From an uncultured Eubacteriales bacterium (lineage in GTDB: Bacteria; Bacillota; Clostridia; Christensenellales; CAG-138): a stretch of DNA of 64,000 nt. The stretch is from the NCBI GenBank assembly GCA_900546845.1, contig UREK01000007.1, positions 2,815-66,814 of the forward strand, written 5' to 3'. This document shows, piece after piece, positions 11,111-16,880 of this stretch. The notes beneath the pieces were generated by a model, which did no database searches, was not told the origin of the DNA, and saw nothing but the letters and a program-made list of their open reading frames with translations. Positions within the stretch are counted from its first letter, which is position 1; every line of letters begins with the position of its first letter. A program made the position numbers and the translations under genes.

Positions 11111-11139
11111 TTGACATCGGAAACATGGGATGATAATAT
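11111..11139 (+). promoter_or_regulatory. sigma-70 promoter with extended -10, drives the T-box leader
   Basis: TTGACA (11111-11116), 17 nt spacer, TGATAATAT (TGn + TAATAT 11134-11139). Confidence 0.6.
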
Positions 11140-11145
11140 ATTATG

Positions 11146-11410
11146 TATAAACATTCAAGCGCAAGGAAGAAACCAAGTAGGCGGGCGCTTTGCTCCAAAG
11201 AGAGCTGCCGGGCGGTGCGAGGCAGTGGGGCAGCGTGCGTTGAATACCTTTCGGAGCGGCTTGCTGAACCAATATAGTAGGCAATGCCGGGAGCGCCCGT
11301 TACAGCGCGAGGATATGTCAGTATCCGTTTGAGGCTGCCCTTTGGGGCGGTAAAATGAGGTGGTATCACGGGCCTGCTCGTCCTCTGCAAGATGCAGAGG
11401 ACTTTTTTTA
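11146..11410 (+). promoter_or_regulatory. T-box riboswitch leader (probable Tyr specifier UAC) with terminator
   Basis: Stem I elements: AAGTA 5' specifier-loop side, AGAGAG bulge (11199-11204), GGTGCGA distal loop, and GAA-TAC-C on the 3' specifier-loop side (11242-11248). T-box motif AATGAGGTGGTATCACGGG (11355-11373). Terminator GTCCTCTGCA/TGCAGAGGAC + T7 (11380-11409). Confidence 0.8.
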
Positions 11411-13082: not shown

Positions 13083-13233
13083 CCCGGCATATTATGTATT
13101 TGCTATGGCGCGAAATTTGTATTATTATAAAGGCTAAAAATCCGGCACGCGTTCCCCGCGGAGCCGGATGCACCCGTCGTAAAAAGGCAGGGGCTTTCCC
13201 CGCTTTTGCTTTGAACGTATAAGGAGGATGATC

Positions 13234-15581: not shown

Positions 15582-16880
15582 ATGGAACGTTACTATCAGC
15601 CAGAGATTGAATGTGCCAGCCGGGAGCAGATCCTTGCCTGGCAGAACGAGCGCCTGCTGCGCCAGGTGCAAAACGTATGGGACAACGTGCCCTATTACCG
15701 CAAAAAGATGGAGGAGAAGGGCCTTAGCCCCAAGGACGTCAAGGGGCTAGAGGATCTGCACAAGCTCCCCTTCCTCACGAAGGACGACCTGCGCGAGGCA
15801 TATCCCTATGGCCTGATGGCCCGCCCCCTGAAGGATTGCGTACGCATCCAGTCCACCTCCGGCACCACGGGAAAGCGCGTCATCGCTTTTTATACCCAGC
15901 ACGATCTTGACATCTGGGAGGATTGCTGTGCCCGGGCGATCGTCGCAGCCGGCGGCACGGATGAGGACGTCTGCCATGTCAGCTATGGCTACGGCCTTTT
16001 CACCGGCGGGCCTGGCCTCAATGGCGGCAGCCATAAGGTGGGCTGCCTGACCCTGCCGATGTCCTCCGGCAATACGGATAGGCAGCTCCAGTTCATGGTG
16101 GACCTTGGTTCCACGATCCTCTGCTGTACGCCTTCCTACGCGGCATACCTGGCGGAATCCGCTGCCGAGCGGGGCATCCGGGATAAACTCAAACTCCGGG
16201 CGGGCATCTTCGGGGCCGAGGCCTGGAGCGAGGAGATGCGCCGGGAGATCGAAAAGGGCCTCGGCATCAAGGCTTACGACATCTACGGCCTCACGGAGAT
16301 CAGCGGCCCCGGCGTGAGCTTTGAATGCTCCGAGCAGACCGGCATGCACATCAATGAAGATCATTTCATCGCGGAGATCATCGACCCCCGCACCGGCGCG
16401 GTGCTGCCCGAAGGGGAAAAGGGCGAACTGGTGTTCACCTCCATCACAAAAGAGGCGTTCCCGCTTCTGCGCTACCGCACGCGGGATATCTGCGTGCTGA
16501 GCCGAAAACCCTGTTCCTGCGGCCGCACGCACGTGAAGATGTCGCGGCCCATGGGCCGCAGCGACGACATGCTCGTCGTCAAGGGCGTGAACGTATTCCC
16601 CTCCCAGATCGAGACTGTCCTTCTGGAGCAGGGTTATGCCGTCAACTACCAGATCATTGTGGACCGGGTCAACAATTCCGATACGCTGGAAGTCCACGTG
16701 GAGATGACGCCGGAGATGTTCTCCGATCAGCTCAGCCACGTGGCGGAGATGGAGAAGCAGCTGGTCAGCGCTTTGAAGGCCATGCTGGGCATTTACGCCA
16801 AGGTGCGCCTTGTGGCGCCCAAATCCATCGAGCGCAGCGAAGGGAAGGCTGTCCGCCTGATCGACAAGCGAAAAATTTAA
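15582..16880 (+). CDS. paaK: phenylacetate-CoA ligase family protein
   Basis: 432 aa from ATG 15582. Motifs SSGTTGKRVIAFYT and YGLTEISGPGV, with PaaK-type length and termini. Confidence 0.9.
   Translation: MERYYQPEIECASREQILAWQNERLLRQVQNVWDNVPYYRKKMEEKGLSPKDVKGLEDLHKLPFLTKDDLREAYPYGLMARPLKDCVRIQSTSGTTGKRVIAFYTQHDLDIWEDCCARAIVAAGGTDEDVCHVSYGYGLFTGGPGLNGGSHKVGCLTLPMSSGNTDRQLQFMVDLGSTILCCTPSYAAYLAESAAERGIRDKLKLRAGIFGAEAWSEEMRREIEKGLGIKAYDIYGLTEISGPGVSFECSEQTGMHINEDHFIAEIIDPRTGAVLPEGEKGELVFTSITKEAFPLLRYRTRDICVLSRKPCSCGRTHVKMSRPMGRSDDMLVVKGVNVFPSQIETVLLEQGYAVNYQIIVDRVNNSDTLEVHVEMTPEMFSDQLSHVAEMEKQLVSALKAMLGIYAKVRLVAPKSIERSEGKAVRLIDKRKI

Follow-up and report, generated by a model that had tools for sequence, protein, structure and literature searches.

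In the DNA analysed here (the window, the whole stretch of 64,000 nucleotides), a T-box leader with a well-supported Tyr specifier precedes an unusual regulon, consisting of an AMP-forming acyl/aryl-CoA ligase, the two subunits of indolepyruvate:ferredoxin oxidoreductase (IOR), a PaaK-like ligase, an ACT-domain protein and an aminotransferase. We consider it probable, with some room for doubt, that three things hold together: the leader senses tRNA-Tyr, read-through carries transcription from the ligase gene through iorAB and the PaaK-like and ACT genes to the aminotransferase gene, and the operon salvages arylacetate to tyrosine. The RNA itself is ordinary; its value is that of a label, which argues that the IOR, PaaK and ligase genes behind it supply tyrosine rather than degrade it.

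The leader and the genes behind it

A scan with the Rfam T-box model, proposed in an earlier sequence-only reading of this DNA, returned RF00230 at 106.8 bits (gathering score 93, E 1.4e-22), with the covariance-model alignment running end to end over model positions 1-219 and not truncated. The element is confirmed as a genuine, ordinary full-length T-box. The parts that the same reading had listed as canonical, AGAGAG, GGUGCGA and the T-box sequence, all lie where it had placed them (Table 1). A sigma-70-type promoter that agrees with the consensus at 10 of 12 positions is found upstream, and the transcript likely starts at about 11146, immediately 5' of the Rfam match.

Table 1. Features of the leader and the operon, in window coordinates
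Feature	Position	Strand	Details
sigma-70-type promoter	11111-11139	+	TTGACA, 17 nt, TAATAT; TG precedes the second hexamer
T-box leader (Stem I, II, IIA/B, III, antiterminator)	11155-11388	+	Rfam RF00230
Stem I base, 5' side	11161-11179	+	RF00230 alignment
AG bulge AGAGAG	11199-11204	+	conserved model positions
Distal loop GGUGCGA	11214-11220	+	conserved model positions
Specifier-loop 3' side and helix	11242-11257	+	GAA 11242-11244, UAC 11245-11247, C 11248, UUUC 11249-11252
T-box sequence	11354-11372	+	bulge UGGUAUC 11361-11367
Antiterminator	11357-11385	+	A1 GAGG/CCUC, bulge UGGUAUC, A2 ACGGG/CUCGU
Intrinsic terminator	11380-11409	+	10-bp G+C-rich hairpin 11380-11402 and seven U
AMP-forming acyl/aryl-CoA ligase, ANL superfamily, 545 aa	11445-13082	+	AMP-binding 1.2e-77, AMP-binding_C
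Spacer, place of the symporter gene in relatives	13083-13227	+	145 nt; promoter-like site, hairpin with U run
iorA, IOR alpha, 581 aa	13228-14973	+	TIGR03336, 695.4 bits (cut-off 650.9)
iorB, IOR beta, 190 aa	14975-15547	+	NF005325, 272.6 bits (cut-off 230)
PaaK-like phenylacetate-CoA ligase, 432 aa	15582-16880	+	AMP-binding and AMP-binding_C_2
ACT-domain pair protein, 143 aa	16895-17326	+	ACT_8 7.4e-29
Class I/II PLP aminotransferase, 388 aa	17378-18544	+	Aminotran_1_2 8.4e-63

The 5' side of the Stem I base reads, in order, GC, the K-turn strand AAGGAA, the helix strand GAAA (11169-11172) and CCAAGUA (11173-11179). The last of these is the 5' strand of the specifier loop, and its AGUA is one half of the S-turn. 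The K-turn strand has GGA where the model consensus is UGA. The AG bulge and the distal loop of a T-box form the platform for the tRNA elbow.

Folding of the antiterminator gave the classical 7-nt bulge and -7.6 kcal/mol. The terminator, folded alone, reached -17.6 kcal/mol (z -5.8), and none of 200 shuffled sequences folded as well. Residues 11380-11385 belong both to the 3' strand of the antiterminator and to the terminator, so the two structures are mutually exclusive, which bears out the competing terminator claimed earlier. We take the leader, from its sequence, to be a class I transcriptional T-box that would act by antitermination in vivo. Its bulge is UGGUAUC instead of UGGUACC; the ACC of the T-box bulge is highly conserved (PMC11404447), and the AUC deviation was also found in one other leader (L017). 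The sequence GGUGGAAUC was also found at unrelated places of other loci.

Pfam and NCBIfam matches agreed with the gene content that the sequence-only reading had given (two ligases, IorAB, an ACT protein and an aminotransferase). Both IOR subunits scored above the NCBIfam equivalog cut-offs, whereas the first ligase reached none; the solved structures nearest to it are FadD5, FadD13 and a feruloyl-CoA synthetase, and we propose that it is a 4-hydroxyphenylacetate-CoA ligase. The second ligase scored 493.2 bits with TIGR02155, below the cut-off of 646.3. Its domain architecture fits, and the product is best called PaaK-like. Translation of this gene starts at the ATG at 15582, which follows GAGAGGA, and 432-aa open reading frames are found in relatives. 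The ACT-domain pair protein is probably an amino-acid-binding regulator. The aminotransferase is of the YbdL/methionine-aminotransferase-like type; it scored 354 bits with PRK08912, short of the cut-off of that model. The assembly contains one copy each of IorAB and the PaaK-like gene. In the terminator region 3' of the aminotransferase gene there is a small inverted-repeat element (18568-18810), and a match of the terminator scan (18664-18693) lies inside it.

The specifier codon

We read the specifier as UAC (Tyr). The earlier claim of this codon was upheld by the helix boundary, the match with A73, the insertion variants and the UUC sister leaders. The K-turn register of the model sets the helix below the loop as GAAA/UUUC, with the 3' strand of the loop being the 7 nt GAA-UAC-C and a single unpaired base lying between UAC and the helix. 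Ten T-boxes were found in this genome; most of their specifier loops are of 8 nt (GAA-N-codon-purine), and the Trp leader shows the same 7-nt form as the studied one (GAA-UGG-G). The helix under the loop covaries among orthologous leaders (GAAA/UUUC, GGAG/CUCC, GGAA/UUCC, GAAC/GUUC and GAGA/UCUC), as tabulated by a helix-anchored specifier caller that missed or miscalled six of nine control leaders and was used for this table only, not as an independent test of the specifier.

Comparison of orthologous leaders, suggested in the sequence-only reading, gave UAC in all 11 close leaders (the studied one and 10 from related genomes) and UUC (Phe) in 5 of a further 25, where it occupies the same slot (L045, L055, L061, L066 and L067). 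Four leaders carry an extra base after GAA, namely GAA-A-UAC in L048 and L099 and GAA-U-UAC in L059 and L112; in all four, UAC is one base from the helix.

The variable base N in the T-box bulge shows covariation with the cognate tRNA's discriminator base (PMC11404447). In the studied leader this base is U11364, a match for A73 in this genome's tRNA-Tyr(GUA), whose anticodon is complementary to UAC; both copies of the gene (C2:4130-4212 and C5:86789-86874) specify A73. The same rule holds for the other T-boxes of this genome with an assembled tRNA (Leu, Val, Asp, Trp, Met and Thr), tRNA-Phe being outside the comparison because it is not in the assembly. Codons of the other T-boxes match the gene downstream (leuS, valS, ileS, hisS, ilvB, trpB-like, pheS, metG and thrS). 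The acceptor stem of the tRNA-Tyr copy at C5:86789-86874 seems irregular. The two copies of tRNA-Thr(UGU), at C2:4241-4316 and C5:86882-86957, differ in the discriminator (U73 and A73).

The base 3' of the specifier, C11248, is unpaired and is not the usual purine, an oddity that had been pointed out before and that recurs in the lineage. Among the 11 close leaders, UAC is followed by C in the clade of the studied leader, by A in four and by G in one. C also follows UAC in seven more Tyr leaders (L041, L042, L043, L048, L058, L074 and L083), and follows the codon in four of the five Phe leaders before the ligase, in the second T-boxes of L042 and L083 (described below) and in the genome's own ilvB leader (CUC-C). 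From these leaders, C after the codon is best regarded as a trait of the lineage. A purine at this position is a conserved but not a defining feature of T-boxes (PMC11404447). The minimum-energy fold of Stem I by ViennaRNA paired C11248 in an alternative helix, GGAAG/CUUUC. We rejected this helix because it disagrees with the model's K-turn register and cannot form in L016, L041, L048 and L074, in which C has no pairing partner on the opposite strand.

Shifted by one base into the 8-nt register (GAA-N-codon-N), the loop would present ACC, and the operon would respond to threonine. This reading has a precedent in the genome's own thrS leader (GAA-U-ACC-G), it turns the codons of the orthologues into ACC, ACA or ACG, all of which encode Thr, and a strict rule of codon, purine and helix gives ACG-G in L021. 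It nevertheless requires that the first A-U pair of the helix be open, and the U in the bulge mismatches U73 of the genome's tRNA-Thr(GGU); tRNA-Thr(CGU) also has U73, and the bulge of the thrS T-box is UGGA. Moreover, in the leaders with one more base after GAA, the triplet at a constant distance from the helix is UAC and not ACN; a like shift would turn UUC in the sister leaders into UCC (Ser), a senseless codon next to Phe-related genes; and the U before AC is invariant, whereas G, C and U are all found at that position in the 8-nt loops of this genome. On the helix boundary, the discriminator covariation, the insertion variants and the Phe sister leaders we rejected the Thr register, to which we give very little credence. 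A leader of Clostridium acetobutylicum is reportedly a T-box reading two codons. Dual reading of UAC and ACC was rejected here on the same discriminator mismatch with tRNA-Thr.

Related ligase loci and the reach of the switch

At least 594 related ligase loci were present in the contig collection, and the best 80 were examined. In 31 of these 80, the ligase gene is followed by iorA and iorB on the same strand. A T-box precedes the ligase or its operon in 25 of the 80, with a Tyr specifier (UAC) in 20 and a Phe specifier (UUC) in 5; among the T-box-bearing loci examined, no specifier other than Tyr or Phe was found on a ligase-operon leader. About two thirds of the examined ligase loci are without a T-box, and Rfam at the gathering score found none in 17 of the nhmmer-negative ligase loci. 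In the ligase tree, the presence of the T-box is patchy and Phe leaders occur inside Tyr clades, which requires at least three switches of specificity. In some genomes ligase orthologues sit behind a Phe T-box, so specificity for tyrosine is not a necessary property of the ligase.

Two loci, L042 (8700-10994) and L083 (7334-11354; its layout was read outside a 1.8-kb stretch 3' of the ligase), carry a pair of T-boxes within a single gene cluster: a Tyr leader (UAC-C) before the ligase, and a Phe leader (UUC-C) with its own promoter before iorAB, paaK, the ACT gene and the aminotransferase gene. The Phe leader of L042 scored 107.4 bits in Rfam. This split suggests that the ligase serves tyrosine and PaaK phenylalanine, with IOR and the aminotransferase shared.

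Some other loci showed possible traces of T-boxes or different regulatory elements. L044 (1862-2064) carries an apparent remnant of a second T-box, in which an intact terminator hairpin directly follows a promoter and the beginning of Stem I, the T-box sequence having been deleted. In L047 (8948-8982) and L051 (4367-4413), whose ligase genes have no T-box, the portion of the leader profile that covers the terminator still gave a short match just upstream of the gene, which may be a remnant or an attenuator of another kind. In L050 (3713-3813), an azaaromatic (yjdF) riboswitch aptamer (85.3 bits) was found about 5 kb upstream of a T-box-less ligase orthologue.

Three genomes of the same genus (G001, G003 and G004) and one other (G013) have, behind the T-box and with short gaps, the genes for the ligase, a symporter of the sodium:solute type (about 518 aa), IorA, IorB, PaaK, the ACT protein and the aminotransferase. 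The studied genome and its closest relative, G002 (ligase 92% identical), are without the symporter gene and have in its place spacers of 148 and 137 nt, respectively, as measured by BLAST hit ends. No symporter homologue was found elsewhere in the studied assembly, which is 95.6% complete. The gene was lost in the studied genome, with the spacer left behind. By analogy with the tightly packed relatives, the switch would control iorAB, paaK, the ACT gene and the aminotransferase gene in addition to the ligase gene.

The spacer itself contains a promoter-like site (13100-13128; 9 of 12 consensus positions) and a hairpin (13187-13213) followed by UUUUGCUUUG, so that the coupling of the last five genes to the switch may be incomplete. 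It is conceivable, although we think it rather unlikely, that the T-box gates the ligase only and that iorAB, paaK, the ACT gene and the aminotransferase gene form a second unit transcribed from the promoter-like site, with the hairpin and its U run stopping or attenuating read-through from the ligase. In line with such an arrangement, G002 has, in the corresponding position, a promoter-like site together with a hairpin that differs from this one and carries a U run, and the IOR modules of L042 and L083 have a promoter and a T-box of their own. However, the stem of the spacer hairpin is short and bulged, the fold of the spacer is no better than that of shuffled sequence (z -1.24), the promoter consensus is matched weakly, within AT-rich sequence that remained after the loss of the symporter gene, and the same-genus genomes have these genes packed tightly behind a single T-box. 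A decayed second T-box, as in L044, was rejected for the spacer: no Rfam family matched 13083-13227, and a search with E up to 10 gave nothing relevant.

Proposed mechanism and direction of the pathway

With a single switch governing the whole operon, the mechanism would run as follows. Stem I would present UAC to the GUA anticodon, and the free NCCA end of an uncharged tRNA would pair with the UGGU of the bulge, U11364 with A73, thereby stabilising the weak antiterminator and letting the polymerase pass the terminator; with charged tRNA, the terminator would form. Read-through would yield the AMP-forming ligase and, if continued, IorAB, the PaaK-like protein, the ACT protein and the aminotransferase. 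The first ligase would convert 4-hydroxyphenylacetate to its CoA thioester, IOR with reduced ferredoxin would convert the thioester to 4-hydroxyphenylpyruvate by reductive carboxylation, and the aminotransferase would turn the latter into tyrosine. Phenylacetate would enter by way of PaaK and become phenylalanine through this IOR and aminotransferase as well. The substrates named here are those that the protein families would lead one to expect.

The regulatory logic and the gene set both point to the anabolic direction. Opened by uncharged tRNA-Tyr, such a switch would be expected to increase the supply of tyrosine. AMP-forming ANL ligases work toward the thioester; as both ligases are of this type, they would drive acid to thioester, and the ACT protein and the aminotransferase in the same operon complete a biosynthetic set. 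Since aroC, tyrA and pheA are also present, in a cluster on contig 13, salvage would supplement and spare de novo synthesis and would not be the sole source of tyrosine. The absence from the assembly of the symporter found in relatives counts against the salvage model, in which the acid must be taken up. The studied leader is the only Tyr T-box found in the assembly. No T-box was found upstream of tyrS (L121; G000:C65:1441-2658, minus strand) in the 253 nt up to the end of the contig.

Alternatively, the operon might be catabolic or serve another end, IOR oxidising aromatic amino acids to arylacetyl-CoA and the T-box reflecting some other need, such as the balancing of aromatic pools. IOR and its neighbouring genes are usually annotated as catabolic, the enzyme is reversible and the genome is able to make tyrosine de novo. 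We nonetheless find this quite improbable. Breakdown of tyrosine induced by uncharged tRNA-Tyr would be counter-productive, two AMP-forming ligases spend ATP on making thioesters, and the operon contains neither an ADP-forming synthetase nor a phosphotransacylase/kinase pair for energy conservation. The restriction of ligase-operon leaders to Tyr and Phe specifiers likewise argues for salvage.

The tyrS gene of Bacillus subtilis reportedly has a Tyr-specific T-box leader, on the work of Grundy and Henkin. The studied leader is like that type in its K-turn, S-turn specifier loop, AG bulge, distal loop, Stems II, IIA/B and III, UAC specifier, UGGN bulge pairing with A73 and competing terminator; unlike it, the studied leader has C after the codon and UGGUAUC instead of UGGUACC in the bulge, and precedes a CoA ligase and IOR operon rather than a synthetase gene. 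In the Bacillus cereus group, Tyr T-boxes are described in the main text of Wels et al. 2008 (PMC2494555) for a tyrosine biosynthesis operon, phenylalanine-4-hydroxylase and an NhaC-type transporter, and the conversion of a Tyr leader to a Phe leader is noted there as well. The studied operon is similar in that a Tyr T-box governs tyrosine-supply genes, not a synthetase, but its genes would form a reductive-carboxylation salvage route. Tyr T-box targets given in the main text of the surveys PMC2494555 and PMC3766115 are tyrS, tyrosine biosynthesis, phenylalanine hydroxylase and transporters; neither main text names an IOR or a CoA ligase, and the words 'oxidoreductase' and 'CoA' are absent from that of PMC2494555.

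For the chemistry, IOR-dependent conversion of aryl acids to aromatic amino acids has been described in Methanococcus maripaludis (Porat et al., as cited in PMC4162585), and synthesis of phenylalanine from phenylacetate in rumen cultures (PMC7356843). The proposed route shares with these the order of aryl acid, CoA thioester, IOR and transamination, and an IorAB homologue is present. It differs in that it is the putative route of a bacterial operon with ANL and PaaK-like ligases, an ACT protein, an aminotransferase and a tRNA-sensing switch. The literature searched yielded no paper that connects a T-box with IOR, PaaK or the salvage of arylacetate.

We lean, if only slightly, towards the broader conclusion that the direction in which a widespread, mis-annotated gene set works in vivo, and its substrates, can be read from the T-box specifier. 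Members of the ANL ligase family concerned are usually named fatty-acid-CoA ligases. If the conclusion is true, this family, with its at least 594 related loci, would be a family of 4-hydroxyphenylacetate-CoA ligases, a testable substrate prediction for a large uncharacterised group of enzymes, and the clostridial IOR would be an arylpyruvate synthase. Gut and rumen Clostridia would remake tyrosine and phenylalanine on demand from the arylacetates of fermentation. One base (UAC to UUC) would switch the sensor from Tyr to Phe or back, a natural example of T-box specificity switching on orthologous operons, and in some lineages it would be divided between two T-boxes that each govern half of the pathway. 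Both phenylacetate and 4-hydroxyphenylacetate are abundant metabolites of the gut with links to host health, and models of their pools would change with a bacterial sink that recycles arylacetates into amino acids.

The Trp T-box of this genome (UGG; L007:1501-1746, G000:C31:2866-3111) precedes a TrpB-like (trpB2) gene. Its position suggests salvage of tryptophan from indole under the same regulatory logic.
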